From positions 1,860,001-1,892,000 of the forward strand of contig CP060262.1 of NCBI GenBank assembly GCA_022646745.1: a stretch of DNA of 32,000 nucleotides, given 5' to 3'. The position numbers were made by a program, and so were the translations under genes. The stretch comes from Planctomycetales bacterium (GTDB taxonomy: Bacteria; 4484-113; JAFGCY01). Within the stretch, counting starts at the first letter, position 1; each line of letters starts with the position of its first letter. The notes under the pieces were generated by a model. The model had not been told where the DNA came from, made no database searches, and saw only the letters and a program-made list of their open reading frames with translations. Positions 7,762 through 32,000 of the stretch are shown here, one piece after another.

Positions 7762-7789
7762 TTGACTAATTGAATCATTATGGTAAAAT
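7762..7789 (+). promoter_or_regulatory. sigma-70-type promoter TTGACT-N16-TAAAAT with TGn extension
   Basis: TTGACT at 7762-7767, TG at 7781-7782, TAAAAT at 7784-7789. It lies ~29 nt upstream of the ATG at 7818. Confidence 0.5.
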
Positions 7790-7817
7790 ACACTAACAAT
7801 CGTATAGGGAGGCAGTG

Positions 7818-8231
7818 ATGGATCTGAATGCGCAGTTGTTTGAGGACAGCACGGTGTATTGCCTGCTCTGGGCCTTGCAGCATAAGGGAGAAATTGACAG
7901 GGGAATCCTCATGGAGCATGGCTTCACGGACGTGGAAGCCGCCAACATCCTTAAGGACGAGGCCGGCCGCCTGCGTGCCCTGAAGCGCCGCGTAGCCTCC
8001 GCAGCCGCAATCACTCCCGAAAGCCTGGCCGCCATGCTGCGTGCGAAGCTGAGCGAAATGCTGTCGCGCGTGGAGAAGAGCACGGAGCTGTCCAGCCTGC
8101 TGCGCAGCCTGAAGGGCCTGCCGGACTGGCTGTTCCCGCAGTGGAAGCTCGAAGCCGAAGAGCAGCGCAACCTCGATGCCCTGCGCCGACTCGCGGAGAA
8201 GTCCGGCGTGCTGCCGGCGCTTGGCGGCTGA
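7818..8231 (+). CDS. hypothetical protein (137 aa), helical, no domain recognised
   Basis: AGGGAGG RBS at 7806-7812, 5 nt before the ATG at 7818 (the GTG at 7815 is too close to the RBS). Amino-acid composition is balanced, in contrast to the R/S/P-rich antisense ORF 7793..8413. Confidence 0.7.
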   Translation: MDLNAQLFEDSTVYCLLWALQHKGEIDRGILMEHGFTDVEAANILKDEAGRLRALKRRVASAAAITPESLAAMLRAKLSEMLSRVEKSTELSSLLRSLKGLPDWLFPQWKLEAEEQRNLDALRRLAEKSGVLPALGG

Positions 8232-14385: not shown

Positions 14386-14482
14386 CTGGATTCTCCCGCA
14401 GCGGAATCCAGTCAGTTCGCTGGTCCCGCAATAGTTGGCCAATCGGCTAGGATAGCACGCAGGCAAGTGGTGATACCGCTCA

Positions 14483-14488
14483 TATAAT
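14483..14488 (+). promoter_or_regulatory. perfect TATAAT, 6 nt upstream of the DinB3 ATG (leaderless candidate)
   Basis: The sequence is TATAAT-ttctgt-ATG, with no SD. Confidence 0.35.
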
Positions 14489-14494
14489 TTCTGT

Positions 14495-14989
14495 ATGGCA
14501 GGACCATGCACAGAGTTGAACCTCATCCATTTCGGCCGCTCATATCTGCAAAAGGCGCTCGATAACAGCGCGGGCGTGCTGGACTTCCGCCCGCAGGCAG
14601 TGGCTATGGCGGCCGGTCAGCGGCTGTTCTCGATCCGCGAGCACTTCCTGCACATCGCTGACATCGGCGAGGTGTTCATTCTCGAGTCCGTGCTCGGCGA
14701 GCACAAGCCTCGCGGCAGCTGGCGCGTGATCTACGAGGACCGTGGCGGATTCAGCCTCGGTGGTGAATACCCGGATGTCGCGAGCATCCGCTCTGAGCTG
14801 GAGGCAAGCTGGGCCTTCCAGGATGAGCACCTGCTGTCCCGGCCGCAGGCGGAACTTGCAAATGCAGTCGGGCATCGCGGACGGACACTGGCGGAGGAGC
14901 TCGGCTGGCTGGTGTTCCACGAGAGCCAGCACCGCGGGCAGATCCTCACACTGATGCGGGAAGCCGGAGCGGAACCGCCACATTGGTAG
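14495..14989 (+). CDS. DinB-family protein, paralog 3
   Basis: Contains SIREHFLHIADIGEV...FHESQHRGQILTLMREAGAEPP. Confidence 0.85.
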   Translation: MAGPCTELNLIHFGRSYLQKALDNSAGVLDFRPQAVAMAAGQRLFSIREHFLHIADIGEVFILESVLGEHKPRGSWRVIYEDRGGFSLGGEYPDVASIRSELEASWAFQDEHLLSRPQAELANAVGHRGRTLAEELGWLVFHESQHRGQILTLMREAGAEPPHW

Positions 14990-16602: not shown

Positions 16603-17136
16603 ATGGAAAAGCTGCGATTGGGCAGGTTGTTCTGCCTGGGTCTACTGATTGCTGCGGCCGCTTTGCTGCCGTTGTTCACATCCCCCGCGAATGCCGCTGA
16701 CGGCCAGAGCCTGCGCGAGAAGCGTGCGGAAGTCAGCGGGATGAAGCGCATCTCGGACAAGCGTGACGGTGAAAGCGTAGTGCTTACGAGGGAGCTGCCA
16801 TCGCTGGCGGACTATGCCCCCGTGCCGACCGGGCATTGGGCCTACCCGGCGCTCAGGCACCTCAGCAAGCAGGGCCTGCTGAATGGCTACCCGGACGGAT
16901 TCTTCAAGGGTGACCGCCCGCTGACCCGCTACGAGTTCGCCCAGGCGATGTCCAACCTGCTTCCGATGGAGCAGGCCGACAGCCAGGCACAGCTCGCGGT
17001 GGTGGCATTGCAGACGGAATTCTCCGGCGAGCTCAGCGACATCGCGGCGCGGATTGACGAGATCTCCATGCAGCTTGCCGAAATGCAGGCGCGACTCGGC
17101 GCATTGAGCGCGGCGAACGAGGCGGCCACTCCATAG
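16603..17136 (+). CDS. secreted SLH-domain protein with a short coiled-coil tail
   Basis: Signal peptide ...LFTSPANA|ADG. One SLH module (PTGHWAYPALRHLSKQGLLNGYPDGFFKGDRPLTRYEFAQAMSNLL). A heptad-like tail follows (ELSDIAARIDEISMQLAEMQARLGAL). Confidence 0.85.
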   Translation: MEKLRLGRLFCLGLLIAAAALLPLFTSPANAADGQSLREKRAEVSGMKRISDKRDGESVVLTRELPSLADYAPVPTGHWAYPALRHLSKQGLLNGYPDGFFKGDRPLTRYEFAQAMSNLLPMEQADSQAQLAVVALQTEFSGELSDIAARIDEISMQLAEMQARLGALSAANEAATP

Positions 17137-17280
17137 GGACCGGGGATCAGGGACCGGGGACCAGGAGGTGCGACCACGCCAAGGCGTGGTAGTCGCACAA
17201 CAGGAGGTCAGGCGAAAGCCTGACAACAGTGGTCAGTTGCCAGCGGTTGGTGCTCAGTAGCAGCGGCGCCCCCGCCGCTG
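17137..17280. repeat. 3'-flank composite of G-rich words plus three GC hairpins
   Basis: gggaccggggatcagggaccggggacc. Nested hairpin GTGCGAC-CACGCC-aa-GGCGTG-gta-GTCGCAC (17168-17198). GTCAGGC-GAAA-GCCTGAC (17206-17223). The cagtggtcagt word. CAGCGGCG-cccc-CGCCGCTG (17261-17280). Confidence 0.8.
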
Positions 17281-17359
17281 GAGTGTGTAAGGGGATCTCT
17301 GCATTGCCAGCTCATCAATGAAGCCTGGCCAGCTTGCTGCGGAATCAGCCTTAGTTTTT

Positions 17360-17396
17360 CCACGCCACAGGCGTGTTGCGCGGCCTCCGGCCTTGC
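17360..17396 (+). repeat. 37-nt dispersed element, copy B (left bracket of the low-GC cassette)
   Basis: Reads ccacgccacaggcgtgttgcgcggcctccggccttgc. Its 5' part is itself a hairpin (CACGCC-aca-GGCGTG). Confidence 0.85.
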
Positions 17397-17427
17397 CTGG
17401 AGGAATCTCTATAGCTAGAGCCATGGG

Positions 17428-17825
17428 TTGACATCGCCGCCTGCTTCTTCATCCCCGGCGGGGCTGTGGCTTCGTGGAGCAGGGAACTACGGCATGTACT
17501 ATGGAATCAAGGGTGGCAAAGTCGTTTACATCGGCAGATCTGGCAGTATTCTGGATCGGATAAATACTGGCGTATGAAGAAGAGGTTTGACGATACGATT
17601 TGAATAAAGCAATTCCAAGACTTGACCAGTAATCAATCCAGGGCGATAGAGGATTTCCTGATCAGGACAACCAGAGGTGGTCCCAGACCACCACATGGCA
17701 CCGGTCAATTATGGAACAAACGAAACGAAGTCTGGGCCGGACATTCACACCATAAGGAATGGTATGAATGGGCAAGAAGGGAAATTGACAATAGAGGTTT
17801 TCAGTTCCCGGATGAACTGCTTTAG
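17428..17825 (+). pseudogene. decayed GIY-YIG-type nuclease module, split over three reading-frame pieces
   Basis: Piece 1 (frame of ATG 17494) reads GNYGMYYGIKGGKVVYIGRSGSILDRINTGV*, which aligns by eye with the UvrC/I-TevI GIY...YIG...R motif. After a frame change comes ..RMKKRFDDTI* (TGA at 17601). The piece in the same frame after the TGA (track ORF 17622..17825) reads SRAIEDFLI...GQLWNKRNE, supplying the Glu and Asn expected later in the fold. There is no homopolymer at the break points. Confidence 0.4.
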
Positions 17826-17837
17826 AATGGAGTCAGC

Positions 17838-18635
17838 ATGAAGCATCCCGTTATCGGAAAGTTGTACCTTTATTCCCCTTGTGCTGAATTCACAGTTCAC
17901 ATAACGCCGGTCGAATACTGCAATGCAGGATTGTTCAAGGGAGCTCTGCTGTGCTATATCTTCAAGCCTGAAAAGTCAGCGGAAGAGTTGTACTCAAATG
18001 CCAGCGGTGATGACCTGCTCATTCCCGCGTTCTTTACATTCAAGGAATACTTCAGGGATGGATCATTCTCATATGTTCCTGCCGACAAGTCCGTTCCTCT
18101 GCCATTGTTTCGCCAGCATGGATTTAATTCTGACATATTGAGAAGGGATTTTCGCCCCGACAAGTGGTATGACATTAGCGATAAGCTGATTCCTGAGAAC
18201 ATCATTCCTGACCACTGTTCGCCTGGAGCCTTGTCCTCTTTACCTGGAATTTGCAAACACGTTGCCAAGGCACTGAATATCGACATTAACTGTGATCAAC
18301 TATATCCTGACGAGGAAGAGGATAGCAGGAAGTCGCAGTTGCCAGCGGATGATCATGTCAACAAACGCAGCATGTTTCTTGTTGTGTCGATTCCACATGG
18401 CCCGGATGCCTGTAAGAATCCTGAACAGGACATCATGGGGATTGAGGATGCGCTTATTGCTGCCCTTGTGCCTGCCAAACTGGGGACCTGTGATGGAGAT
18501 GAAGCAGGCGAGAATGATACTGACCTCTTTGTGAAGATCCGCCCCAGGAAGTTTCCGGAAGCAATTCAGGCAATTCGAAATGCGCTTGATGACGTGGGTG
18601 TACTGAAATATGAGCTTTCGTGGATCAAGGGATGA
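17838..18635 (+). CDS. hypothetical 265-aa protein (low GC), candidate immunity-type partner of the nuclease remnant
   Basis: The ATG lies 12 nt after the upstream stop and is preceded by TGGAG. GC is about 45% in a hand-counted 93-nt sample. No motif was recognised. The immunity role is inferred from position only. Confidence 0.65.
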   Translation: MKHPVIGKLYLYSPCAEFTVHITPVEYCNAGLFKGALLCYIFKPEKSAEELYSNASGDDLLIPAFFTFKEYFRDGSFSYVPADKSVPLPLFRQHGFNSDILRRDFRPDKWYDISDKLIPENIIPDHCSPGALSSLPGICKHVAKALNIDINCDQLYPDEEEDSRKSQLPADDHVNKRSMFLVVSIPHGPDACKNPEQDIMGIEDALIAALVPAKLGTCDGDEAGENDTDLFVKIRPRKFPEAIQAIRNALDDVGVLKYELSWIKG

Positions 18636-18748
18636 AAAGGGGAATCCACCTCCTTTGCAGTTCAAAGTCGTAACGGAATGTCTATCTGAAGGATACATCG
18701 AAACAGTTGGAATCCAGGACTTCCTGAATCCAACTTGCAAGTGCAACC

Positions 18749-18935
18749 CAGACCGGCGAATACTTGCTCGAACCGGCGACTTACTCTGTAGTTTCCGCGC
18801 GATTCGCTGGGAAACAATGCCCGTTCGGCCAGCGAGGAGCTGTGCTCTGAGCTGAGCTGCAGACCAGCGAGACCCTGTTCGAGCTGGCAATGGAATGCAG
18901 ACCGGCGAGCGCTCGTGCGAACCGGCAATACTTGT
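18749..18935. repeat. three degenerate ~31-nt direct repeats CAGACC(G/A)GCGA-N9-10-CGA(A/G)C(C/T)GGC(G/A)A
   Basis: Copies lie at 18749-18780, 18860-18890 and 18898-18935. Confidence 0.65.
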
Positions 18936-18968
18936 AACCGACACACTCGCCGGCATCACAGATATCCC

Positions 18969-19005
18969 AAACGCCATAGGCGTGCTGCGCGGCCTCCGGC
19001 CTTGC
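18969..19005 (+). repeat. 37-nt dispersed element, copy C (right bracket of the low-GC cassette)
   Basis: Reads aaacgccataggcgtgctgcgcggcctccggccttgc. It has the same orientation as copy B, 1.6 kb away. Confidence 0.85.
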
Positions 19006-19319: not shown

Positions 19320-21401
19320 ATGAATCTCAAGCTGAGCTATCTGACTGGATTGCTGCTGTGCCTGCTGTGGCTGGTACCGGCGACGGGCGCCGTCCCGGAC
19401 GGGATCCGCGCTGATGACTTCGTCGAATCAAGCTATGCCGTGCTGACCCAGCCGGTGCAGGACCGCACCCAGGTGCGTCCGGGCGAGACCATGATGCTCG
19501 GCCTGCGCACGGTGACCTACGAGGACCAGGGCATCAAGTTCCACATCTACGGCGTTGAGCCCAGCACAGCCGGCTACATCCCCAGCAACTGGGAGATGGG
19601 CGAAAGTGAAATAGCGACATTCGGCGAGGCGGACTGGCCGGCGGCCCACCTCGAGAAGAGCGAGATCGGCGACATGTACTGGCTGATGGGCCAGAACGTG
19701 GCGAAGATGGAGGCCACGATCAATCCCGATGCTGCTCCCGGCAAGTACATGCTGACTGGCAAGCTGTTCTTCATGGCCTGCACCGAGGAGATGTGCCTCG
19801 CCCCGAGCCTCGTCGAACTGAACTGGCCGGTGGAAGTCGTTGCCAGCGACTTCGCCGGCGACATCATGGTCGACCCCGGTGTGTTCAATGAGTCCTATCC
19901 GGTCAGCTATGCACAGGACTTCAGCCTGCCACCCGCTGAGGATGAGGGCAGCGGCATTGACGAAACCGGCGATGGCGGAGGTGATGCTGCCGTGGCTGGC
20001 AGCACCGACGGTGGTGGAGGCGCAGCTGGCGACCTGCTCGGCAAGCTCAAGCAGAGCAAGGCTGAGAAGGAGCCGATCCCCTTCCTGAACATCTTCCTGC
20101 TGGCACTGGCCGGCGGCCTGATCCTGAACGTGATGCCCTGTGTGCTGCCCGTTGTCAGCATCAAGGTGATCTCACTCGTGAAGAGCGCGCATGAGGACCC
20201 GAAGCAGATCTGGGGCCACGGCTTCGCCTTCAGCGGCGGTATCCTCGCGGCCTTCGCCGTGCTGGCGCTGGCGGTCACGATCCTGCAGAGTGTCGGCAAG
20301 GCCAGCGGCTGGGGTTTCCAGTTCCAGAACCCCTGGTTCGTGGTGGCGATGGTCACGATCATCTTCGTGTTCGGCCTCAGCCTGGCCGGCGTGTTCACCA
20401 TCAAGCCACCCGAGGCGATCACGCATACCGGCGAGAAGCTGGCTGAGAGCGAGACGCTGGGCGGCTCATTCTTCAAGGGTGCCTTGGCAACGGTACTCGG
20501 CACCCCCTGTGTCGGACCCTTCCTCGGCCCGGCACTCGGCGTGGCCTTCACCACCGAGCACAGCTGGCAGGTGTTCCTGATCTTCTTCGCGATCGGCGTC
20601 GGCATGGCGGTGCCCTACATCCTGATGCTGCCCTTCCTGACGAAGATGGGCCGCCGCGAGCGCGGCCAGCTGTCCCGCAGGCTGCTGGAAAGCAAGGACA
20701 AGCTCGTGCTGTTCGAGCGCGTGATGGCCTTCCTGATGTTCTTCACCGTGGTCTACCTGCTGAGCATCCTCGCCGGCATTGGCAACGAGAAGACACTCGT
20801 GTGGATGGCCTTCTACCTCACCGGGCTGGGGTTTGCCGCCTGGGCCTGGGGTGAGATGGTGCTGCGTGGCCGCCAGACGATGCTGCGCGGCATGCCGATC
20901 GTATTCCTGATCGTGCTTGCCACTGCCTGGTTCGGCCTGACCCGCGTGGCACAGACGACCGTCAACACAATGACCCCGGAGGCCCAGGCCGAACTCGGTG
21001 GCGCAGGTGTTGACAATGCCGTTGAGCAGGCGGAAGCCTCCGCACATGGCAACTGGGTGCCCTTCAGCATGGCGGCACTTGAGCAGTATCTCGCTGAAGG
21101 CCGGACGGTGCTGGTGGACTTCACCGCCGACTGGTGCCCGAACTGCAAGACCAACGAGGCTGTCGCGCTCAATGTGCCCAGCACCCAGCAGCTCGTCAAC
21201 GACGAGGACGTGGTGATGATGCAGGCGGACTGGACCGTGCCGAATGACGAGATCAAGAACATGATCAACGCGCTTGGCTTCGCCAGCATTCCGCTGGTCG
21301 GCATCTTCCCGGCCAACGACCCCGGCAACCCGGTGGTGGTGGACGGAGTCTACAGCGCGGCGCAGATCCAGGAGCATATCCGCGAGGCGCTCAAGCGCTG
21401 A
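19320..21401 (+). CDS. dsbD: three-domain protein-disulfide reductase, DsbD family
   Basis: Signal peptide. N-terminal alpha-domain Cys pair (FFMACTEEMCLAP). Membrane core with the two conserved Cys (NVMPCVLPV and GTPCVGPFLGP). C-terminal thioredoxin domain (DFTADWCPNCK). Confidence 0.9.
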   Translation: MNLKLSYLTGLLLCLLWLVPATGAVPDGIRADDFVESSYAVLTQPVQDRTQVRPGETMMLGLRTVTYEDQGIKFHIYGVEPSTAGYIPSNWEMGESEIATFGEADWPAAHLEKSEIGDMYWLMGQNVAKMEATINPDAAPGKYMLTGKLFFMACTEEMCLAPSLVELNWPVEVVASDFAGDIMVDPGVFNESYPVSYAQDFSLPPAEDEGSGIDETGDGGGDAAVAGSTDGGGGAAGDLLGKLKQSKAEKEPIPFLNIFLLALAGGLILNVMPCVLPVVSIKVISLVKSAHEDPKQIWGHGFAFSGGILAAFAVLALAVTILQSVGKASGWGFQFQNPWFVVAMVTIIFVFGLSLAGVFTIKPPEAITHTGEKLAESETLGGSFFKGALATVLGTPCVGPFLGPALGVAFTTEHSWQVFLIFFAIGVGMAVPYILMLPFLTKMGRRERGQLSRRLLESKDKLVLFERVMAFLMFFTVVYLLSILAGIGNEKTLVWMAFYLTGLGFAAWAWGEMVLRGRQTMLRGMPIVFLIVLATAWFGLTRVAQTTVNTMTPEAQAELGGAGVDNAVEQAEASAHGNWVPFSMAALEQYLAEGRTVLVDFTADWCPNCKTNEAVALNVPSTQQLVNDEDVVMMQADWTVPNDEIKNMINALGFASIPLVGIFPANDPGNPVVVDGVYSAAQIQEHIREALKR

Positions 21402-21440: not shown

Positions 21441-24095
21441 GTGGTGCACCGCCCGATCCTGACTGCGATGCTGCTGGCCTGCCTGCTGGGCAGTTCCTGC
21501 ACGCAGCCGCAGCCGGCGGGTAATCCCACTCCGGCGCGGCGTGCCCAGGCGGACTGGATGGACCTGCACCATCCCGGCCCTTATGCGACGGTCACACCTC
21601 CAGGCGGCCAGCCGGAGCGTTGCCAGAGCTGCCACCAGTTCGAGACTTTGTCAACGATTCCGTCCTTCCTGCCGGCCGAGCTGCAGGACGATCCAGCAGG
21701 CGAGTACTCTGACCCCACTGAACCGCTGCAGGTCGGCGGCACGCATCCCGGCGGCTGGCTGGACTGGCATGACCCGGGCATCGTCGGCTGCGTCGGCTGC
21801 CACGGCGGGAATCCGCAGGGCCTGAGCTACAACGAAGCCGGCCACTCCAGCATGTTTGACAACAACGATGAGCTTGACGGCGCACCGGTCAATGTGCTGC
21901 GCGAGGCTTCCTGTGGGCGTTGCCATGCCGGGGAGCTCGTGCCCGCCGCGCCGCTGCTGAGCGAAGGCCGCAGCCTGATGCGTGAACTGCGCTGCAGCGC
22001 CTGCCACAGCCTGCCGGACTGGCTGAGTGCGGGCTACGCCGGGCCTGACCTCGGCCGCGTGGGCGAGAAGTACAGCGCCGGGATGATCGCGCTCGTGCCG
22101 ATGCATGTGCAGCAGTTCAAGCCCGGCAGCCGCATGCCGACATTCGACCTGCCGGAGGCGGAGGCGGCGCACATTGCCAGTTTCCTCGCCGGTGATTCGG
22201 ACATGCTGGAAGATGACAACAAATCCACAGTCGACCCCGCCGATCCGCAGGCGCTGGCCCTGCTGGCAGAGTCGCGCTGTGTGAATTGCCACGTGCTGCC
22301 CGCCCTGCCGGAAGGACTTGACATTGCAAGCCTGCCGGAGGAGGTGCGCCTGCTCTGGGAGATGCCGCAGGGCATGCTCGGGCCAAGCCTCGAGCTGGTC
22401 GGGCGGCGGCTCAGTGCGGCATGGATCGCGGACTTCCTGCTAAACACGCATGAGCGTAACGCCGGCAGCCGCATGCCACAGCTGGAGCTGGATGCCCAGC
22501 AGGCGCAGCTGCTTGCGGACTGGCTGGTCAGTGCCAGCAAGGACAGCGGGACGCCACTGCCGGCGCTGCCGGATGTGTCCGCCGGCTACCCGGTGGAGGG
22601 CAACAGCCTGTTCATCGGTCGCGGCTGTGCGGGCTGCCACAGCATCGACGGCCGCTCGCTGGCCGGCAACCCGGTCGGGCCCTCACTGGCCGGGGTCGGA
22701 GAGCGCACGCTGGAGCAGATCCAGACCAAGGCCCCCACGATAGACAGGCTGTACGACTACCTCGATGGCAACATGCGTGACCCGCAGTCCGTTGGCAACC
22801 AGTACATGCCGCGCTTCAACCTGACTGACGGGGAGCGGCTGGCGATCGTCACCGCCCTGCTGGCTGAACCGCAGGACGACTCGCACCGCATGGCGCCGCT
22901 CCGGGAAACGCCTGCATCCGACCCCGCCGCAATCAGGACGGACTGGCAGGCCTACTGGCAGTACCCGGTCGAGCCGCAGGGCAGCGGTGACCACATGCTG
23001 TCGCGCCTGGAGCGCGACCTGCGGCCGGAAAGCTGCGCGGTCTGCCATCGCCAGCAGTACACACAGTGGCAGGGCACGCGCCACAGCCTGGCAATGGGGC
23101 CGGGCATTGTGGGCCAGATCGTGGACATGGACAGTGCCAACTACAGCTCCTGCCTGAAGTGCCATGCCGTACTGTCAGAACAGCAGCATGTGCGGAAGCT
23201 GGATGGCAAGTGGCAGGACAACCCGGATTACAAGGAGCAGCTGTACCTGAGCGGCAATTCCTGCGCCAGCTGCCATGTACGGGCGCACACGCGCTTCTCC
23301 GCCGTTGACACTTTCCAGCGTTACCCCTGGGCGGATGGTGCTGTTTCCGCCCACAGTCTGGAGCGCAGCCCGCTCTTGCAGTCCAGCGATTTCTGCTGGA
23401 ACTGCCACCAATTTGATGAGAGCCGCACGCTGGCGGATGGCGGGCCGCCGTTGCAGAACACCAACATTGAGCACCGCGAATGGCAGCAGCGCAGCGGTGA
23501 CACCCGCAGCTGCCAGGCCTGCCACATGCCCGAGGGTGCCCACACTTTCCTTGGGATCCACAACGAGCAGTACGTGCGCGATTCACTGAAGCTCAGCGAG
23601 TCACTGGTGCTTGAAAACAACACTGGACTGTCTGCACGCCTGACGATAGACACAAGCGAGATCGGGCACCATTTTCCGACATATGTCACTCCAGTGGCCA
23701 TCATCGAGTTCGAGCTGTATGACGGCGATGGAAAGCTGCTGGAGGGTTCGCAACAGGAACAGCGCATCGGACGAGATTCACGGACCAGGGCGAAGGAGGG
23801 CGGTGGCCGCGAATGGTACGACGAGTCAGATACGCGCATCCCGGGGGGCACGGTGCGGGACTTCGACTTCCCGATAGACATGGGTGCATTCCCAACTGCA
23901 GCCTCGGCCAGGCTCTTGCTGCGTGTTGAGCCTGACCACTTCTATCACAATTCATACAAGCGCTGGATCGAGGATGAAAAGCGCAGCGAGGCCGGACGGG
24001 AGCTGCTCAGGCAGGCGCTGGATGAGACTTCACGCGAATCCTCCGGCTATACGGTGTATGAGGCAGATCTGATGATCTCGCCGTTGCTGGACTGA
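21441..24095 (+). CDS. 11-haem c-type cytochrome, probable lipoprotein
   Basis: I counted eleven CxxCH motifs: CQSCH, CVGCH, CGRCH, CSACH, CVNCH, CAGCH, CAVCH, CLKCH, CASCH, CWNCH, CQACH. Three central units resemble class-I domains (CxxCH...GP(D/S)L..VG......MP.F.L). The C-terminal five haems are closely packed, as in multihaem cytochromes. The N-terminus reads MVHRPILTAMLLACLLGSSC. The GTG start is uncertain (21441, 21444, or the ATG 27 nt downstream). Confidence 0.85.
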   Translation: MVHRPILTAMLLACLLGSSCTQPQPAGNPTPARRAQADWMDLHHPGPYATVTPPGGQPERCQSCHQFETLSTIPSFLPAELQDDPAGEYSDPTEPLQVGGTHPGGWLDWHDPGIVGCVGCHGGNPQGLSYNEAGHSSMFDNNDELDGAPVNVLREASCGRCHAGELVPAAPLLSEGRSLMRELRCSACHSLPDWLSAGYAGPDLGRVGEKYSAGMIALVPMHVQQFKPGSRMPTFDLPEAEAAHIASFLAGDSDMLEDDNKSTVDPADPQALALLAESRCVNCHVLPALPEGLDIASLPEEVRLLWEMPQGMLGPSLELVGRRLSAAWIADFLLNTHERNAGSRMPQLELDAQQAQLLADWLVSASKDSGTPLPALPDVSAGYPVEGNSLFIGRGCAGCHSIDGRSLAGNPVGPSLAGVGERTLEQIQTKAPTIDRLYDYLDGNMRDPQSVGNQYMPRFNLTDGERLAIVTALLAEPQDDSHRMAPLRETPASDPAAIRTDWQAYWQYPVEPQGSGDHMLSRLERDLRPESCAVCHRQQYTQWQGTRHSLAMGPGIVGQIVDMDSANYSSCLKCHAVLSEQQHVRKLDGKWQDNPDYKEQLYLSGNSCASCHVRAHTRFSAVDTFQRYPWADGAVSAHSLERSPLLQSSDFCWNCHQFDESRTLADGGPPLQNTNIEHREWQQRSGDTRSCQACHMPEGAHTFLGIHNEQYVRDSLKLSESLVLENNTGLSARLTIDTSEIGHHFPTYVTPVAIIEFELYDGDGKLLEGSQQEQRIGRDSRTRAKEGGGREWYDESDTRIPGGTVRDFDFPIDMGAFPTAASARLLLRVEPDHFYHNSYKRWIEDEKRSEAGRELLRQALDETSRESSGYTVYEADLMISPLLD

Positions 24096-24463
24096 TCCGC
24101 GATCCACAGCTTTCATCAATTCTATACTCACTGGCCCTGTTCTGTTATACTCCGGATACTTTGGTGTCTTGTTGGTTGAATCGCTGACTTGACGCTTCGG
24201 TAAGTAAGAGGTAATTGCAATGGGCCTTGCAAGTACAGTTTCGACAAACCCGAATGCGCTTCGTTGTTCCTCTTGCTCGCATATTCCCAGACAGAATCCG
24301 CGCCCTTTCGCGCGCGTATTCACCGGCTGAACGACTGACTGATTAGCAAGGAGGAACGCATATCTGCGGGCTCGGGCCATGCCGCAGAAACTTATCGCCC
24401 CTTAGCGGGCCCCCTGAACACGTTCATTTTTTATTCCATACCAATACCTATATAGGAGTTATT

Positions 24464-27400
24464 ATGAAGACTCATGTGAACTGGTGTAGGCACCTCGGGC
24501 TGTCGCTCGTGGCGCTTACGTTGGTCTTCGTAGCAACTGCCTGCGGTGGAGGTGGCGGTGGCGTCACTAATGAGATGACGCTGGCGGCATCGGACACGGG
24601 CCAGTCCATTGGCAACAATGGGCGTGGCGTCGGCCAGGAGCTGACGGTCTCAGAGAACGAGATCGGCAGGCTCAGTGCTGAACAGCAGGCTTTGCTATCT
24701 GACGCGGGCTGGAACCAGCCCTACATTCCCCCCAGGGCCGGCACCCCGATCCAGGGTCCCAGCCATGAGATGCTGATGGCGCAGCTTCGTGAGATGGCTG
24801 AGCGCGGCGTTACGATGCTGCCCCGCGGCGTCGAGGGGGAAGGCACGAAGGGAGCCAGCTGGCTGGACCAGCGCGGCTTCAACCCGGGCGTTGACAGCGG
24901 CCTCGTCAAGGGCCAGTACAAGGCTGATGATACTGGCGCCAACGGCGTGCCGGACTTCGGTTGCAACGCCTCCGGTGCACTGATGGCTGACAACGGCCAG
25001 TCCGACATCGAGGACGTGATCTTCGCCTACGGCGGCAGCATGCCGGCCCAGGCGATCAGCTGGGTGGCTGAGGGCCTGTCGACCATCAACCACTTCAACA
25101 GCGTCGGTGGTGGTGGTGACGATGCGTACACCGCCGTCTACCAGCTGTTCGCTGACAGTGAAAATGCAGATCCCAACAACCAGGGAAACAATGACATCGG
25201 TGAGATCGGCTACCGTGCCGACCTCGGCCCCTACGGCATCGGTTACGGCCAGGGCAGCGGCCCCAACGGCACGCTGTGCGACGGAACCGCCTACGGTGTC
25301 CGCAATGCGTTCTGGATGACCTTCAATGAGAAGTTCTTCGGCCTGCCGAGCGGCCAGGCCACTGCGCTGTACAACATCCTGATTGCTCCCTCAGAAGAGG
25401 AGACCGCGGACCAGGTCAGCCCGATGGACACCTCCGCGAACTTCCAGACCTTCTACTTTGGCAACGTGTCCTCCTGCTACGGGGATGCGATGATCGTCGG
25501 CATCAACGCAGCTGACAGCGGTTGCGACATGTTCGACGAGGCCTCCAATGCGCCGTGGCAGGACCGTACGGCAGATGGCAACAGCTACCCGAACATCCTG
25601 CACAACCCGGTCTTCGGCGTGATCCTGGCCCGCTGGGCCGGCGGCAGCGTCAATGCCAGCAGCCAGTTCTTCGGTGAGGAGGCATATCCCAGCGGAGCCA
25701 ACATGCTCGGCTGGCCCGTGGCCCGTCCGTTCGCATACAACAACGGCGCCGCGCTGCTCAATGCCAACGGTGCCTACTACGCCTTCGGCCAGTTCTTCGA
25801 GAAGGGTTTCATGTGGTGGATCGACTACGACCAGAACAGCAACCCGACCGCGAGCGACGAAGCGCAGATGTACATCTACGACGGCAACAACACCTTCTGC
25901 GAGGGTGAGTACTCCAAGGTCGAGCCTGACGTGTTCTACGGCGGCAGCGGCGACCTCGGCGTTGCCATCACCGTGGACGGCGTGCGCTACGGTGCCGGCG
26001 ACTGGTCCGCCCCGCAGCTGTCCGACGACGGTACCTATTACCAGATCGGCATGCTGCTGGACGAGAACACCGGCATCAGCAGCGTGACCATCGCTGCCAG
26101 CGCGCACGGCTTCGGCGGTGTGACGGCTGACGGTGCCGATGTGGGCCACCCCGAGTGGGGCGCCTGCCTGTACAAGCACAGCACATGGTCATGGCGTGAC
26201 GGTACGGTCACGGCAGCCGGCACGGCCTTCGATCCGAGCCAGTTCGCCCGTACCCACACCTACAGCAGCAATGCGATCAAGACCAATGTCGAGGGTGTGT
26301 ACACGATCCGTAACCAGGTCGTGGACGCCGATGACAACATCGCCTACGGTGACAGCCTTCCGATGCACCTCGGACACGGCGGCGCCGGTGGTGGCGGTGG
26401 CGACACCGAAGTCTGGGTCATCCGCAACGACGGCGGTGACTTCCAGCTCAACCTCGACGCCCTGACCGGCGACCTTGACGCCCTTGGCGTTGGCTACAGC
26501 GTGGTCGACTACAGCGCAACCGTCGCTGACGACTTCGCTGCCAACCCGAACGCGAAGGTCGCGATCTGGTACCGTGGTGGACCGGGTGGCGCGGGTGAGT
26601 CCGCGACCTACACCACCGCCTGGACCAGCGGTGAGATGGACAACTACATCCAGCTGATGAGCGACGGCTTCGGCGTGATGCTGATGAGCCAGAACCACGG
26701 CTACGATGGAGACCTGTTCTTCACCAACGGCTGGAGTGGCATCTACGGTTATGCGACCCTGCCGGCCTCCGTCCCGGATGCCGACCGCCGCATGCCCTGG
26801 GCCTCCAGCCTGTGCACCGATGACGGTATCGGTTTCGGTGGTTCGCTTGGTTTCATCCCGACCGCCCCGAGCAACTTCATCGGTAACCCGAGCGGCGCGA
26901 ACTTCGGTGCCGACGGTACCAACGCCGCGGAGCGCTACACTGGTAGTGGTTCCTCGGGTGAGCTGCCGATCAGCTTCGGCATGGCAACCGGCCGCCAGTA
27001 CTGCGGTATCGGTTACTACAGCTCCTTCTTCGCGGGCTCCTGCGCAGGTCCGGCCTTCCGTGCCGGTATCGGCCACCAGCCCAACGCGCTTGGCTTCGAC
27101 CTGGGCTTCCTGTCCTGGGGTAACAGCCAGGCCCCGGATGCCAACATCGGCTTCTTCCCGAGCTACAGCCACAGCTTCGGCACCGGCAAGGTGTGGAACG
27201 TTGGCTACAGCTGGGCAGGCACCAGTGTGACGGCTTCCGCTTCCGGCACGATGGACCGCGCCGACCTGCTGAACAACATCCTCGGTTGGCTGGATGACAG
27301 CCTGACCTTCGGTGGTGGCGGCGGCGGTGGCGCCGGCTTCGAGGAGTACGATGGTCCTCCGGAGATCGTCTGCGTGACCCCGATCGCCTGGGACAAGGTG

Positions 27401-29473
27401 AACGGTGCTGTGACGCAGGGTACCGCCGGTGTGGGTGGCCAGAACTACCCCGACCCGAACGGTTCCAACGTCTTCGGTCCGGACATCTCGGCCGGCTTTG
27501 ACTACGCTGTTGAGTACGACACCGGCGTCCGCACCCCGGGCGACGATGACGGCGGCCTGAATGGCAACGACATGGACTTCCAGTTCCCGTTCTACGGCTT
27601 CCTGCAGTGGGACGACACCCTCGGCGCCATCCCCGGCGACGTGGAGGCTGCTGAGATCATCGATGTCAACTACAGCGGTATCGCCCTGAGCGACATCTCC
27701 GCTGACTGGACCAAGTTCTCCGCCCCCTACGGTGGTGTGTTTGATCCTTCCGCCCTCGGCCTCCGTCCGGCAGCCGCCTGGTTCCTGACCGAGACCGACA
27801 ACTTCGGTAACATCAACACCGCCAGCTACGGCGATGCCTTTGGCCCGAACCTGACCTTCAGCAATGACGACGACCTGGTTGCCACCGAGGCGATCGCGCA
27901 CTGGGCACAGGGCACGATGTACGGCGGTTCCCCGGCGTACCTCGCCTGGGCGATGTATCCCGGCCATAAGTCCGTCCAGTTCGACAACGCTGACATCGCC
28001 GTGGGTTACTACGGTGAGGGCGACGTGCTGTGGGAGGACTTCATCGCCGACCACGACATCCAGGTCGGACGTGACCTGTGGGCCTACCTGCGCAGTGACT
28101 ACTCCTTCACCACCCCCGGTGAGGGCCGCACGGTTGACTTCGACTACAACACCGTATTCGGTTTCAACGGCGACCTGAACCGCAACGGCGTGGCCGGAGA
28201 GGCCGCTGACAAGTTCCCGGTGCGTGTCCGCTTCTTCACTGATGTGGATGCCTACGACGACTACTTCGATGACCTGAACGGTTACCCGAACTTCTGGCCT
28301 GATGGCGACTCCTTCATCGAGGGTGGTTGCTACATGGTGGACAACGGACTGCCGAACTACCCGGTCAGCATCTTTGACGATTCCGACGAGGATGATCCGA
28401 AGGACACCGTCTCCGGCAGTGGCCCGGACTACAACGTCGCCCTGTACTTCGAGCTGGCCTTCGGCGTCGGCCCGTACGACGTGGAACTCGACTGGGATTA
28501 CGACTTCATCGGCTGGGGCAACAGCGGTTACACCATGACCCTGCCCAACAGCCCGTTTGCCAACAATGGCAAGCTTTCCGATGTCGTGAACGTTGACCCG
28601 ACCCCGGCTGGCGGCGACGGGGACTACTTCTTCGCCCTGCAGGTGACCGACAGTTCAGTTCCTGCTCGCACGGATGAGTTCTTCTGGCCCGATGCGGTGC
28701 CGCTGCAGCCCAGCCTGAGCTACCTTGTGGTGGATGACAGCACGCAGAGCGGTGACCTGAGCGCCAGCCAGTGCGCCACTGCCCTGACGACCATCTACGG
28801 CAGCCCCGTGTCCGTTGTCAACAGTGCCACGCTGAGCCCCGGTGACCTGAATGGTTATTCAGTGGTCGTCTGGTGCACCAACCACCGCTTCAACAACTCC
28901 GGCGGTACGGGTCCGGGAATTGTCCAGTCTGACTATGACGTGATCGCACCGTACATGGACCAGGGTGGTAACCTCGTGATGTTCTGGCCCTGCCAGGGAC
29001 CATTCAGTGGTACGACGCAGATTTACTACAACCAGGGACAGATCGACCTGTGCAAGGACTACCTCGGTTACATCAACTCGACCTTCCGGATGTACTACCG
29101 CAACGGCACATCCTCAAGCTACGATCCGCACATCACGGATAGCGGACTGAGTATCGGCCCCGGCGCGAGCAACATGAACTACATTGATCGCAACGGTTCC
29201 AACCCCGGATACTACTGCGGATACTTCAATGATTCGGACCTGACCGGTTCTGACGCGGCCTGGTCGTTCACGTCCTCCCGCCGGATCATCCAGCGTTACG
29301 ACTCAAACGGAGCTTCGGAGGGCGGAGTGGCCCTGGTCAACCAGTTCTACTTCTGGAATTCCGAAGCGACCTCCTCACTGAGCGGTTCCCCGCTTGGTGG
29401 CAGTGTCGCAGCGTCCCAGGTGATCATGTTGAAGAACATGCTCAACTACATGGACCCGCTGCTGCTGCCCTAG
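24464..29473 (+). CDS. giant (1669-aa) secreted lipoprotein with poly-Gly linkers, function unknown, copy 1
   Basis: AGGAG RBS 5 nt upstream. Lipoprotein signal LVFVATA|C followed by G6. Coding-like G/D/Y/N-rich composition. The long antisense ORFs (25391..26179, 26189..28054) are R/A/H/V-rich shadows. A terminator follows. Confidence 0.9.
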   Translation: MKTHVNWCRHLGLSLVALTLVFVATACGGGGGGVTNEMTLAASDTGQSIGNNGRGVGQELTVSENEIGRLSAEQQALLSDAGWNQPYIPPRAGTPIQGPSHEMLMAQLREMAERGVTMLPRGVEGEGTKGASWLDQRGFNPGVDSGLVKGQYKADDTGANGVPDFGCNASGALMADNGQSDIEDVIFAYGGSMPAQAISWVAEGLSTINHFNSVGGGGDDAYTAVYQLFADSENADPNNQGNNDIGEIGYRADLGPYGIGYGQGSGPNGTLCDGTAYGVRNAFWMTFNEKFFGLPSGQATALYNILIAPSEEETADQVSPMDTSANFQTFYFGNVSSCYGDAMIVGINAADSGCDMFDEASNAPWQDRTADGNSYPNILHNPVFGVILARWAGGSVNASSQFFGEEAYPSGANMLGWPVARPFAYNNGAALLNANGAYYAFGQFFEKGFMWWIDYDQNSNPTASDEAQMYIYDGNNTFCEGEYSKVEPDVFYGGSGDLGVAITVDGVRYGAGDWSAPQLSDDGTYYQIGMLLDENTGISSVTIAASAHGFGGVTADGADVGHPEWGACLYKHSTWSWRDGTVTAAGTAFDPSQFARTHTYSSNAIKTNVEGVYTIRNQVVDADDNIAYGDSLPMHLGHGGAGGGGGDTEVWVIRNDGGDFQLNLDALTGDLDALGVGYSVVDYSATVADDFAANPNAKVAIWYRGGPGGAGESATYTTAWTSGEMDNYIQLMSDGFGVMLMSQNHGYDGDLFFTNGWSGIYGYATLPASVPDADRRMPWASSLCTDDGIGFGGSLGFIPTAPSNFIGNPSGANFGADGTNAAERYTGSGSSGELPISFGMATGRQYCGIGYYSSFFAGSCAGPAFRAGIGHQPNALGFDLGFLSWGNSQAPDANIGFFPSYSHSFGTGKVWNVGYSWAGTSVTASASGTMDRADLLNNILGWLDDSLTFGGGGGGGAGFEEYDGPPEIVCVTPIAWDKVNGAVTQGTAGVGGQNYPDPNGSNVFGPDISAGFDYAVEYDTGVRTPGDDDGGLNGNDMDFQFPFYGFLQWDDTLGAIPGDVEAAEIIDVNYSGIALSDISADWTKFSAPYGGVFDPSALGLRPAAAWFLTETDNFGNINTASYGDAFGPNLTFSNDDDLVATEAIAHWAQGTMYGGSPAYLAWAMYPGHKSVQFDNADIAVGYYGEGDVLWEDFIADHDIQVGRDLWAYLRSDYSFTTPGEGRTVDFDYNTVFGFNGDLNRNGVAGEAADKFPVRVRFFTDVDAYDDYFDDLNGYPNFWPDGDSFIEGGCYMVDNGLPNYPVSIFDDSDEDDPKDTVSGSGPDYNVALYFELAFGVGPYDVELDWDYDFIGWGNSGYTMTLPNSPFANNGKLSDVVNVDPTPAGGDGDYFFALQVTDSSVPARTDEFFWPDAVPLQPSLSYLVVDDSTQSGDLSASQCATALTTIYGSPVSVVNSATLSPGDLNGYSVVVWCTNHRFNNSGGTGPGIVQSDYDVIAPYMDQGGNLVMFWPCQGPFSGTTQIYYNQGQIDLCKDYLGYINSTFRMYYRNGTSSSYDPHITDSGLSIGPGASNMNYIDRNGSNPGYYCGYFNDSDLTGSDAAWSFTSSRRIIQRYDSNGASEGGVALVNQFYFWNSEATSSLSGSPLGGSVAASQVIMLKNMLNYMDPLLLP
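25976..26644 (+). repeat. 669-bp tract identical base-for-base to 31332-32000
   Basis: Compared by hand line by line. The last mismatch is G25975 versus T31331. Identity then continues to the end of the window. Confidence 0.9.
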
Positions 29474-29514
29474 TGCAAGCTGCCTGAGCCTGGTCGGCTG
29501 AACTGACCAAACCG

Positions 29515-29544
29515 GCCCCGGAGTCACTGGCTCCGGGGCTTTTT
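29515..29544 (+). terminator. rho-independent terminator after giant gene copy 1
   Basis: GCCCCGGAG-tcactgg-CTCCGGGGC followed by TTTTT. Confidence 0.85.
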
Positions 29545-29816
29545 CATTTCCGGATGTTGCAGAGAGGAAATTCTCAGCAGATACATATAAGTAAAGTACG
29601 GTCAAGTGATCATCTGCTTAATCGGATCAATCGAACCCTTTACCTTTCCTTAACGATGGGGTTATAGTCTAGGTGCACAGCATATAGGTAAACGGGCCAA
29701 CGAACGCAGGAGGAACACGCATGCGTGTCAGTGCCTTAATGGGGCTACCTAGCGCAATCGCGCGCCATCTTCTTCGTTCTTACCCACTTTCATCCCACAC
29801 CCTTACAGGAGTTTGT

Positions 29817-32000
29817 ATGAAGACTCATGTGAACTGGTGTAAGCACCTCGGGCTAACGCTTGTGGCGCTTACGGTAGTCTTCGTAGCAGCTTCCTGCGGT
29901 GGTAACGGCGGTGGTATCTCGGCGAATGTCGAGACCCAGACCGGTACCTCCAACACCGTGATCGACGGAGGTCGTAACGGTGTTGTATCAGCGGAGCTTA
30001 CCGTCTCTGAGAATGAGATCGGCAAGCTCAGTGCTGAGCAGCAGGCACTGCTTTCAGACGCGGGCTGGAACCAGCCCTACATCGTCCCCAAGGCCGGCAC
30101 CCCGATCCAGGGCCCGAGCCATGAGATGCTGATGGCACAGCTTCGTGAGATGGCTGAGCGCGGCGTCGAGATGCTGCCCCGCGGCGTCGAGGGAGAAGGC
30201 ACGAAGGGAGCCAGCTGGCTGGACCAGCGCGGCTTCAACCCGGGCGTTGACAGTGGCCTTGTGAAGGGCCAGTACAAGCCCGCCGACACCGGCGCCAACG
30301 GCGTGCCGGACTTCGGTTGCAACGCCTCCGGTGCGCTGATGGCTGACAACGGCCAGTCCGACATCGAGGACGTGATCTTCGCCTACGGCGGCAGCATGCC
30401 GGCCCAGGCGATCAGCTGGGTGGCTGAGGGTCTGTCGACCATCAACCACTTCAACAGCGTCGGTGGTGGTGGTGACGATGCGTACACCGCCGTTTACCAG
30501 CTGTTCGCTGACAGCGAGACCGCGAACCCGAGCAACCAGGGCAACAACGACATCGGTGAGATCGGCTACCGTGCCGACCTCGGCCCCTACGGCATCGGTT
30601 ACGGCCAGGGCAGCGGCCCCAGCGGCACGCTGTGCGACGGAACCGCCTACGGTGTCCGCAATGCGTTCTGGATGACCTTCAACGAGAAGTTCTTCGCCCT
30701 GCCGAGCGGCCAGGCGACTGCCCTGTACAACGTGCTGATCGCCCCCAGCGGTGATGAGGGTGCGGACCAGGTCAGCCCGATGGACACCTCCGCAAACTTC
30801 CAGACCTTCTACTTTGGCAACGTGTCCTCCTGCTACGGGGATGCGATGATCGTCGGCATCAACGCAGCTGACAGCGGTTGCGACATGTTCGACGAGGCCT
30901 CCAATGCGCCGTGGCAGGACCGTACGGCGGATGGCAACAGCTACCCGAACATCCTGCACAACCCGATCTTCGGCGTGATCCTGGCCCGCTGGGCCGGCGG
31001 CAACGCCAACTCGGACAGCCAGTTCTTCGGCGACGGCAGCTTCCCGAGTGCGGCGAGCATCGTCGGCTGGCCCGTGGCCCGTCCGTTCGCATACAACAAC
31101 GGCGCCGCGCTGCTCAATGCCAACGGTGCCTACTACGCCTTCGGCCAGTTCTTCGAGAAGGGTTTCATGTGGTGGATCGACTACGACCAGAACAGCAACC
31201 CGACCGCGAGCGACGAAGCGCAGATGTACGTCTACGATGGCAACAACACCTTCTGCGAGGGTGAGTACTCCAAGGTCGAGCCCGACGTGTTCTACGGCGG
31301 CGCTGGCGACCTCGGTGTCGGCGTGACCGTTGACGGCGTGCGCTACGGTGCCGGCGACTGGTCCGCCCCGCAGCTGTCCGACGACGGTACCTATTACCAG
31401 ATCGGCATGCTGCTGGACGAGAACACCGGCATCAGCAGCGTGACCATCGCTGCCAGCGCGCACGGCTTCGGCGGTGTGACGGCTGACGGTGCCGATGTGG
31501 GCCACCCCGAGTGGGGCGCCTGCCTGTACAAGCACAGCACATGGTCATGGCGTGACGGTACGGTCACGGCAGCCGGCACGGCCTTCGATCCGAGCCAGTT
31601 CGCCCGTACCCACACCTACAGCAGCAATGCGATCAAGACCAATGTCGAGGGTGTGTACACGATCCGTAACCAGGTCGTGGACGCCGATGACAACATCGCC
31701 TACGGTGACAGCCTTCCGATGCACCTCGGACACGGCGGCGCCGGTGGTGGCGGTGGCGACACCGAAGTCTGGGTCATCCGCAACGACGGCGGTGACTTCC
31801 AGCTCAACCTCGACGCCCTGACCGGCGACCTTGACGCCCTTGGCGTTGGCTACAGCGTGGTCGACTACAGCGCAACCGTCGCTGACGACTTCGCTGCCAA
31901 CCCGAACGCGAAGGTCGCGATCTGGTACCGTGGTGGACCGGGTGGCGCGGGTGAGTCCGCGACCTACACCACCGCCTGGACCAGCGGTGAGATGGACAAC
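29817..32000 (+). CDS. giant lipoprotein, copy 2 (3'-truncated by the window; absent from the supplied ORF track)
   Basis: ATG at 29817 with AGGAG 5 nt upstream. It translates MKTHVNWCKHLGLTLVALTVVFVAAS|CGGNGGG... There are 728 in-frame codons to the window end with no stop. It is collinear with copy 1 (offset 5353 nt, later 5356 nt). Confidence 0.9.
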   Translation, partial: MKTHVNWCKHLGLTLVALTVVFVAASCGGNGGGISANVETQTGTSNTVIDGGRNGVVSAELTVSENEIGKLSAEQQALLSDAGWNQPYIVPKAGTPIQGPSHEMLMAQLREMAERGVEMLPRGVEGEGTKGASWLDQRGFNPGVDSGLVKGQYKPADTGANGVPDFGCNASGALMADNGQSDIEDVIFAYGGSMPAQAISWVAEGLSTINHFNSVGGGGDDAYTAVYQLFADSETANPSNQGNNDIGEIGYRADLGPYGIGYGQGSGPSGTLCDGTAYGVRNAFWMTFNEKFFALPSGQATALYNVLIAPSGDEGADQVSPMDTSANFQTFYFGNVSSCYGDAMIVGINAADSGCDMFDEASNAPWQDRTADGNSYPNILHNPIFGVILARWAGGNANSDSQFFGDGSFPSAASIVGWPVARPFAYNNGAALLNANGAYYAFGQFFEKGFMWWIDYDQNSNPTASDEAQMYVYDGNNTFCEGEYSKVEPDVFYGGAGDLGVGVTVDGVRYGAGDWSAPQLSDDGTYYQIGMLLDENTGISSVTIAASAHGFGGVTADGADVGHPEWGACLYKHSTWSWRDGTVTAAGTAFDPSQFARTHTYSSNAIKTNVEGVYTIRNQVVDADDNIAYGDSLPMHLGHGGAGGGGGDTEVWVIRNDGGDFQLNLDALTGDLDALGVGYSVVDYSATVADDFAANPNAKVAIWYRGGPGGAGESATYTTAWTSGEMDN
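31332..32000 (+). repeat. partner of the 669-bp identical tract (25976-26644)
   Basis: See the entry for 25976-26644. Confidence 0.9.

Follow-up and report, generated by a model that had tools for sequence, protein, structure and literature searches.

The stretch of DNA considered here, called the window below, comprises 32,000 nt of contig CP060262.1 and ends in two tandem genes of about 5 kb, which encode giant proteins with a lipoprotein-type signal and poly-glycine linkers. Gene 1 (24464..29473, plus strand) is an open reading frame (ORF) of 1669 aa, and its product is 100% identical to P0001, a hypothetical protein at locus H7A35_07550 on a 4.1-Mb contig of the NCBI metagenome-assembled genome (MAG) 'Planctomycetales bacterium' (P-numbers denote retrieved homologous proteins and L-numbers the loci of relatives). 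The N-terminus reads MKTHVNWCRHLGLSLVALTLVFVATA|CGGGGGG. In its layout, MKTHVNWCRH-LGLSLVALTLVFV-ATA|C, a positive n-region and a hydrophobic h-region precede a lipobox whose last residue is cysteine, as in a substrate of signal peptidase II (SPII). Signal peptide, lipobox (..VATA|C, Cys27) and a tether of six glycines occupy aa 1-33 (24464..24562, plus strand) according to the sequence and the family alignment. In this alignment of 21 homologues, the source of the consensus and of all invariant columns mentioned below, Cys27 and Gly28 are present in 21/21 proteins and the lipobox consensus is ..AA.SCGG. Runs of at least four glycines are found at aa 28-33, 215-218, 642-646 and 950-956, beginning at nt 24545, 25106, 26387 and 27311. 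As Cys27 is invariant and the positions of the linkers are conserved in the family, these signal and linker features are not a matter of chance. An earlier sequence-only reading of the window, made without database searches, had described the tandem pair of glycine-linker lipoprotein genes, had placed the three inner linkers at nt ~25105, ~26380 and ~27310 and had given gene 1 its own ribosome-binding site (RBS) and a clean terminator, all of which is borne out: GGAG stands at 24455-24458, 6-9 nt 5' of the ATG in the 5' spacer (24096..24463, plus strand), and an intrinsic terminator (29514..29550, plus strand) consists of a 12-bp stem with 9 GC pairs (29514-29540) and the T-run TTTTCATTTC. The mature product has a mass of 174 kDa, a pI of 4.05 and few Cys; it is rich in G (14%), D (9%), N (6.4%) and Y+F+W (13%) and poor in K (1.1%) and R (2.4%), a composition typical of extracellular beta-rich proteins.

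Gene 2 follows after a spacer of 343 nt. It was recognised by its sequence and by homology to gene 1 and covers 29807..32000 (plus strand), from the RBS AGGAG (29807-29811) and the ATG at 29817 to the end of the window, which it runs past and because of which it is missing from the ORF list. The sequence-only reading had found a second gene with the same MKTHVNWC start leaving the window; the gene exists, only its start had been put at 29818 and the spacer at 344 nt. An alternative in-frame ATG at 29722, 95 nt 5' of this start, would add 32 codons. The start at 29817 is preferred, as it gives the homologous MKTHVNWC beginning preceded by AGGAG and agrees with the NCBI annotation (P0002). The full product of gene 2 is P0002 (neighbouring locus H7A35_07560), a protein of 1613 aa with an all-beta tail, termed class II below. 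The 728 aa of gene 2 inside the window show 92% protein and 93% DNA identity to gene 1, and the pair takes up 23.6% of the window, slightly below the quarter or more that had been estimated.

The family alignment divides the gene 1 protein into a body and a tail: aa 28 to ~1400 are conserved, with a mean column identity of 28-57%, and the last ~270 residues are not. Structure was predicted with AlphaFold2 for two halves of the protein using the 21-sequence alignment, and the models were compared with the PDB by Foldseek. The models are moderate (mean pLDDT 61.6 and 62.0) and contain mostly beta strands and two beta-alpha-beta modules. Block A (aa 58-214; 24635..25105) carries the family signature motif E.EI..L...QQ.L.SD.GWNQPYI, its invariant columns include E64, I67, L70, Q74, D80, G82, W83 and P99, and it is found in every N-terminally complete relative, distant ones of ~27% identity included; helices are predicted at aa 64-114 and long low-confidence stretches in the remainder. 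Linker 2 (aa 215-218; 25106..25117), like linkers 3 and 4, has a position conserved in the family consensus and leads into block B (aa 220-640; 25121..26383), in which an alpha/beta subdomain is followed by beta-sandwiches (pLDDT ~70-88 over aa 278-633) and in which the tryptophan-rich motif LGWPV...GAYYA.G.FFEKGF.WWIDYD. is found; C354, R390, W391, E446, W451, W452, D454, D465, C479, R616, Q618, D621 and D630 are among its invariant residues. Behind linker 3 (aa 642-646; 26387..26401) lies block C (aa 647-949; 26402..27310), an autonomous alpha/beta module of ~300 aa with conserved polar residues D670, E724, S742-Q743 (at the C-terminal end of strand beta-4), S884 and N938. Its model comprises a beta-alpha-beta-alpha-beta-alpha-beta core (aa 650-742, pLDDT ~85), a low-confidence insert of ~90 residues, more strands and a final helix R..LL.N.L.WL. 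Linker 4 (aa 950-956; 27311..27331) joins it to block D (aa 957-1400; 27332..28663), a predicted beta-sandwich stalk (pLDDT up to 96) with the motifs NGND.DFQFP.Y, DKFPVR.R and EGGCY. The variable tail (aa 1401-1669; 28664..29470) is an alpha/beta module with a flavodoxin-like start, where a beta-alpha-beta pattern is predicted at aa 1419-1507 (pLDDT ~60) and aa 1500-1669 are not confidently modelled. All these blocks and linkers lie on the plus strand, and no internal repeat was revealed by self-BLAST of the gene 1 protein.

The family is small and restricted to a single uncultured bacterial lineage. Only 21 homologues with 32-90% identity were found among 5.8 billion protein clusters, and when 1.84 billion representative proteins were searched exhaustively by HMMER with a body profile (aa 58-1225), no more than 133 passed E<=1e-3, among them many fragments. 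Profile searches of the 5.8 billion clusters with the tail of gene 1 (class I) and with block C yielded 3 (E<=0.01) and 4 matches respectively, none with a Pfam domain. Every relative that could be traced to a genome comes from an uncultured MAG; within the species genomes of GTDB these MAGs carry the labels 'bacterium', 'UBP7 HKST-UBA01' or 'uncultured Planctomycetales' and no others. The UBP7 label of this close relative was not adopted, since it misfits the current description of that phylum (genomes of 0.8-1.4 Mb, GC 36-53%). When hidden Markov models (HMMs) of the blocks were scanned over all 149 retrieved proteins, the domain architectures were seen to break exactly at the glycine linkers. 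The canonical form is A-B-C-D with a tail; P0028 and P0030 are A-B-D proteins in which block C is missing, proteins of ~550-635 aa consist of A-B only, and C-D only forms include a 1287-aa gene adjoining three full-length copies in L001. In ~25 further proteins block C constitutes the C-terminal ~300 aa. In the majority of the scanned ones it is accompanied by PKD, TIG or dockerin-like domains, and several of the proteins start with lipobox signals. Block C standing alone at the end of other lipoproteins is therefore an autonomous extracellular module. Five 'mini' relatives of 227-240 aa (P0113, P0120, P0123, P0129, P0130) have the first ~35 residues of block A joined directly to the last ~100 of block B.

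No known domain is recognised in the scaffold. Pfam and NCBIfam gave nothing above threshold for both giants, the 21 homologues, the glycine-delimited blocks, the sub-blocks and five tail classes, the exceptions being PKD and propeller matches in the long tails of other members; isolated block C and tail had no match in either database at E<=10. Block A reached a sub-threshold match to TY-Chap3 (E 0.001-0.016; 16-20 bits, where 27 are required). PDB sequences were searched with a single protein and with three profiles: one of the family, one of block C together with PKD, and one of block C by itself, built from 16 diverse sequences. Only the PKD part of the partner proteins was matched, and the profile of block C by itself found no PDB sequence. 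A regular-expression and hydrophobicity scan revealed no HExxH, CxEQ, LPxTG, PEP-CTERM, RTX array or C-terminal transmembrane segment, and the Pfam and NCBIfam models of the type IX secretion C-terminal domain did not match the giants. The statement of the sequence-only reading that no protease, glycosidase, adhesin-repeat or sorting domain can be recognised thus holds block by block.

The same reading had found two blocks reminiscent of ThuA/GATase1-like flavodoxin-type modules and had regarded them as sharing one pattern. At the level of the predicted fold this seems tenable: AlphaFold predicts beta-alpha-beta in both stretches, and block C and the gene 1 tail may resemble ThuA/class-I glutamine-amidotransferase-like modules (PF06283) in the predicted beta-alpha-beta-alpha-beta-alpha-beta core and the terminal amphipathic helix L..N.L.WL. 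Membership of the ThuA/GATase1 families (PF06283, PF07090) is not supported, as there is no HMM match, the block-C profile is blank in the PDB and the body-profile search returns family members only. The giants further differ from these modules in the ~90-residue low-confidence insert of block C and in the lack of a Cys-His-Glu triad, the position after beta-4 being the conserved Ser-Gln (S742-Q743) with no conserved Cys. Nor do block C and the class-I tail look like the same module twice, for hhalign gives a 15% probability over the terminal helix only, i.e. no detectable homology; the second flavodoxin-like stretch lies inside the non-conserved tail and is replaced in gene 2 by an unrelated all-beta domain. 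The resemblance to an LGFP-type repeat proposed at nt ~25703-25830 is not supported either. LGFP (PF08310) does not match the whole protein at E<=1 or the isolated 66-aa segment (aa 405-470) at E<=10, no tandem repeat is present, and the likeness remains at the level of the motif LG.P...G...F..G..WW.

The strong conservation of polar residues raises the question of an enzyme. The giants could represent novel envelope-anchored enzymes, for example a hydrolase of polysaccharides, peptides or cell wall, in which block B and/or C would be a new catalytic domain and the tails would be carbohydrate-binding or targeting modules, as in modular carbohydrate-active enzymes. Elsewhere block C is found in lipoproteins beside PKD, TIG and dockerin-like modules, an architecture typical of secreted degradative enzymes, S742-Q743, S884, N938, E724 and D670 of block C and E446, D454, D465, R390, R616, Q618, D621 and D630 of block B are strongly conserved, and the Trp/Tyr-rich motifs of block B may resemble sugar-binding surfaces. 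GH123 glycosidases are also among the closest Foldseek matches of the N-terminal half, at only E 1.6e-3 and TM 0.08; nothing in the PDB reached E<1e-3 with this half, and no flavodoxin or GATase entry is among its top 50 matches for block C. However, no enzyme family is matched by HMM, PDB sequence or significant structural similarity, conserved sites include no GxSxG, HExxH is absent, the GATase-type elbow lacks a Cys, and the existence of A-B-D members means that block C cannot be the core catalytic unit of the family. An enzymatic nature is accordingly regarded as rather unlikely, even if it is the strongest of the rivals.

For the C-terminal half the best Foldseek matches are weak similarities to multi-Ig chains, namely protocadherin, PADI6, complement C5, transglutaminase and RbmA (E 2e-4 to 1e-2); the first four, the best ones for block D, lie at E 2e-4 to 2e-3. 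SiiE, MpAFP/MpIBP, FrhA and a 'large adhesion protein' are also listed among the weak matches of the two halves, some of which are adhesin extender regions. The flavodoxin-fusion entries 5v57 and 5zkp have a Foldseek probability of 1.0 over ~95 columns of this model; the aligned query residues are not reported, and from the beta-alpha-beta pattern of the tail the match would sit on the gene 1 tail. Complement C5 and C3c are aligned over 349-547 columns (E 1e-3 to 8e-3), which together with the size and the lipoprotein anchor brings to mind a bacterial alpha-2-macroglobulin (A2M) acting as a protease trap, a membrane-anchored lipoprotein of ~1650 aa built of macroglobulin (MG) beta-sandwiches, as YfhM/ECAM of Escherichia coli. 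The TM-scores of these alignments are only 0.08-0.14, however, and 0/21 members have a Pfam match to A2M, MG or thioester (TED) domains. CxEQ, the thioester motif, is absent, and two alpha/beta modules with exchangeable tails misfit the A2M architecture. Such a trap is considered highly improbable.

The distal part of the giants is exchangeable. From aa ~1450 on, the alpha/beta tail of gene 1 and the all-beta tail of gene 2 have ~16% identity, i.e. they are unrelated, and the breakpoint lies directly after the common ...FFWPDAVPL.P. Across the family the tails fall into at least two unrelated classes or are lacking. The alpha/beta class I is shared by gene 1, P0018, P0005-7, P0009, P0019 and P0021; the all-beta class II, which starts with F.EDFE..W and ends with ..DN, by gene 2, P0003, P0004, P0008, P0010, P0012, P0014, P0017 and P0020. 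Long extensions that match PKD, PQQ-propeller or SBBP are present in some members, and P0011 and P0013 have no tail. A conserved body with an abruptly unrelated C-terminal part of ~220-270 aa, encoded in tandem arrays, is what would be expected of polymorphic toxins or contact-dependent effectors, where a delivery body carries variable toxin domains. Yet no candidate immunity gene was noticed in the 343 nt that separate the two genes, the tails match no toxin family and are beta-sandwich, alpha/beta or beta-propeller modules of a binding type, some members are tailless, and lipoprotein anchoring argues against the release of an effector, so that a toxin is an equally improbable explanation as the protease trap.

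Comparison of the two copies along their length points to concerted evolution. Protein identity in 50-aa windows is 56% over aa 1-50, 82% over aa 51-100, 84-98% over aa 101-550, 98-100% in every window of aa 551-950 (P0001 against P0002) and 64-96% over aa 951-1400. According to windowed nucleotide identity there are no synonymous differences after aa ~600, and a tract on the plus strand is 100% identical in DNA (26114..26647 of gene 1, gene nt 1651-2184, equal to ~31470-32000 of gene 2), while the 5' ends of the genes have only 70-77% DNA identity. The duplication itself appears to be older than the split of these species, because orthologues of both types occur in other genomes: a gene-1-type orthologue was matched full-length in MAG AC1.30 (L005; 85% identity in the best segment), and the gene-2-type tails of P0002 and P0003, the latter from another metagenome, are 73% identical. 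An old duplication with an identical central part of the paralogs is the signature of gene conversion, and conversion between the two genes is what the identical tract suggests. Independent support is given by the short-read assembly of HKST-UBA01, the nearest relative, whose contigs break within the giants at aa 607, ~985 and 339; a central part that is nearly identical between copies in that genome as well would have this effect.

Clustered multi-copy genes with a conserved 5' and a divergent 3' part and with recombination or gene conversion are known from the Sap proteins of Campylobacter fetus and from the variable lipoproteins of Mycoplasma and Borrelia, the latter two being lipid-anchored. 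By this analogy the giants would be subunits of an S-layer or outer sheath, the tandem paralogs serving as alternative surface variants exchanged by recombination. The proteins are large, acidic, Lys-poor and low in Cys, they have a conserved N-terminal and a variable C-terminal part, the tandem homologues share a gene-conversion tract, and a protein with an SLH domain is encoded nearby (16603-17136). On the other hand, neither SLH nor another known S-layer anchoring domain is present in the giants; an SLH-anchored S-layer protein was rejected on this ground, SLH being confined to the separate ORF. Lipid anchoring is unusual in S-layer lattice proteins. In the giants the conserved part extends over ~1400 aa of structured domains, and both copies look independently expressible, each with its own RBS, with a promoter-like site 5' of gene 2 and a terminator between the genes, unlike silent cassettes. 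No switching machinery, invertible promoter or recombination-site repeats were seen, although no search was aimed at the latter two. This reading overlaps with the scaffold explanation given below; as a separate account it is held to be quite unlikely.

The explanation preferred here, to which about even confidence is given, is that both genes belong to a small lineage-restricted family of giant lipid-tethered extracytoplasmic scaffolds displaying alternative binding modules. In its favour are the SPII-type signal, the acidic Gly/Asp/Asn/aromatic-rich and Lys/Arg-poor composition, the predicted beta-sandwiches, the domains that accompany block C elsewhere and the distal modules that can be exchanged. 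The Sec/SPII signal would be cleaved ahead of Cys27 and this residue lipidated, after which the Gly6 tether would hold the very acidic, mostly beta-sandwich protein of 174 kDa at the membrane surface, most likely the cell surface. Modules A, B, C and D, joined by poly-glycine hinges, would form a common scaffold or stalk, and the C-terminal module would be the swappable part: alpha/beta in gene 1, all-beta and jelly-roll-like in gene 2, beta-propeller, PKD or none in others. Since the C-terminal modules are exchangeable on a common scaffold, the paralogs may offer different binding specificities. Their role would lie in adhesion, in capturing particles or polymers or in the architecture of the envelope rather than in catalysis. 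Duplication in tandem, exchange of modules at the linkers and gene conversion within the scaffold would make and keep the repertoire.

Several points weigh against this explanation. Lipidation, surface exposure and binding are deduced from features of the sequence. The -3 residue of the lipobox of gene 1 is Ala instead of Leu, Val or Ile, which is non-canonical; with Ala at this position, the lipobox satisfies no more than the permissive PROSITE-type pattern. Blocks B and C contain many invariant polar residues, in block C for example S742-Q743, S884 and N938, a pattern that an active site would explain just as well. With a mean pLDDT of 62 the models are no better than moderate, and all Foldseek TM-scores are <=0.14 of the query, therefore 'Ig-like stalk' is a coarse description. 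Finally, the 100%-identical tract could partly be an artefact of assembly or polishing, i.e. an assembly collapse.

Among known systems the SusE/SusF-type surface glycan-binding proteins (SGBPs) of Bacteroidota are similar to this scaffold in having a lipidated N-terminal Cys with a flexible linker, a chain of beta-sandwiches, distal specificity modules and no catalysis, features which in the giants are predicted. SGBPs differ in their size of 300-500 aa, their position in polysaccharide utilisation operons beside SusC/D and their recognisable Pfam or carbohydrate-binding-module-like domains, whereas the giants have 1669 aa, no SusC/D context and orphan domains throughout. The RTX adhesins exported by type I secretion systems (T1SS), such as MpIBP, SiiE, LapA and FrhA, are likewise very large, acidic and beta-rich, with a scaffold and terminal ligand-binding modules, but they consist of numerous Ig-like repeats in tandem, and their export involves RTX repeats. 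The giants have neither, GG.G.D in gene 1 is confined to two of the poly-glycine linkers, and an N-terminal Sec-type signal, apparently of the SPII kind, takes the place of RTX export, so that a giant adhesin of the RTX/T1SS type was rejected.

These proteins define four or more new domain families (A, B, C and D). Block C is clearly a mobile module in its own right, and the tandem paralogs are a natural example of module exchange at poly-glycine hinges combined with tail swapping and concerted evolution. With several copies per genome and a place among the largest genes there, the giants probably make up a major part of the envelope in an uncultured lineage from wastewater and sediment. A more far-reaching version can be imagined in which block C, and possibly B, would be an undescribed extracellular catalytic or ligand-binding fold of this lineage and the giants its principal surface machinery for capturing or degrading a polymer or the surface of prey, diversified by tail swapping and homogenised in the scaffold by gene conversion. 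This is a speculative and improbable proposal, about on a par with the S-layer one. If true, it would mean a new modular surface 'toolkit' without counterpart in cultured bacteria, with block C used both in the giants and at the ends of lipoproteins with PKD or dockerin-like domains. Giant orphan surface proteins are common among MAGs of uncultured bacteria, and the finding alone opens no long-standing question: the family is an orphan, yet of a familiar general kind, that of large modular surface proteins with variable distal modules.

As the sequence-only reading had noticed, the pair lies on the same strand directly after the genes for a DsbD homologue and an 11-haem cytochrome. Domain searches identified DsbD_TM and thioredoxin domains in the former (19320-21401, plus strand); the latter, an 884-aa protein with 11 CxxCH and a match resembling MtrC/MtrF domain II/IV, begins 39 nt later (21441-24095, plus strand). 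The N-terminus of the cytochrome is lipobox-like (LLGSSC), and from its sequence the protein may be lipid-anchored and involved in extracellular electron transfer. The 368-nt spacer that separates gene 1 from the cytochrome gene has 90% identity, along its entire length, to its counterpart in L006, a conservation about equal to that of the flanking coding DNA. It contains no Rfam match, as holds for the whole window, and no predicted plus-strand terminator, and it may be a long 5' untranslated or regulatory region. How far the order DsbD-cytochrome-giant is conserved in relatives was examined as well. It is kept in L006, the nearest relative, with protein identities of 78% (DsbD), 89% (cytochrome) and 96% (giant), and is absent from L005, which holds the 85%-identical orthologue, and from the more distant L001, L002 and L003. 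A DsbD-cytochrome link as a feature of the family was thus rejected, L006 alone retaining the order among the loci compared. Tandem or multi-copy giants, found in L001, L003, L007, L008, L013 and L016, are a more recurrent pattern.

Other neighbourhoods are also repeated among the relatives. In L007, L008 and L019 a cassette consists of a giant, an ankyrin-repeat protein (~425-455 aa) and an FG-GAP/ASPIC-UnbV protein (~1250-1310 aa), an arrangement conserved more widely than that with DsbD and the cytochrome. In L003/L004 (1-9878) and L005 (1264-9448), five or six paralogous membrane proteins without a Pfam match are encoded directly 5' of the giant; in L003 and L005 they have 400-940 aa and one transmembrane helix after an N-terminal segment of ~40-60 aa, and the giants of these two loci are 36% and 85% identical to gene 1. 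In the window itself, three low-GC islands (1001-3000, 7001-8000 and 17001-19000; GC 0.51-0.56 against 0.60-0.68 elsewhere) include ORFs without a Pfam match (1503-2939, minus strand, and 17838-18635, plus strand), and their DNA may be recently acquired or non-coding. An ORF entering at the window start (6-1364, plus strand) combines TPR repeats with a TIR_2 domain at its C-terminus (Pfam E 1e-7) and is reminiscent of signalling or defence proteins. The SLH domain mentioned above belongs to a small secreted protein (16603-17136, plus strand), and a 688-aa protein with an SBBP beta-propeller repeat is encoded at 12460-14526 (minus strand); by their domains these two hint at an SLH-anchored envelope layer and at more surface proteins in this organism.

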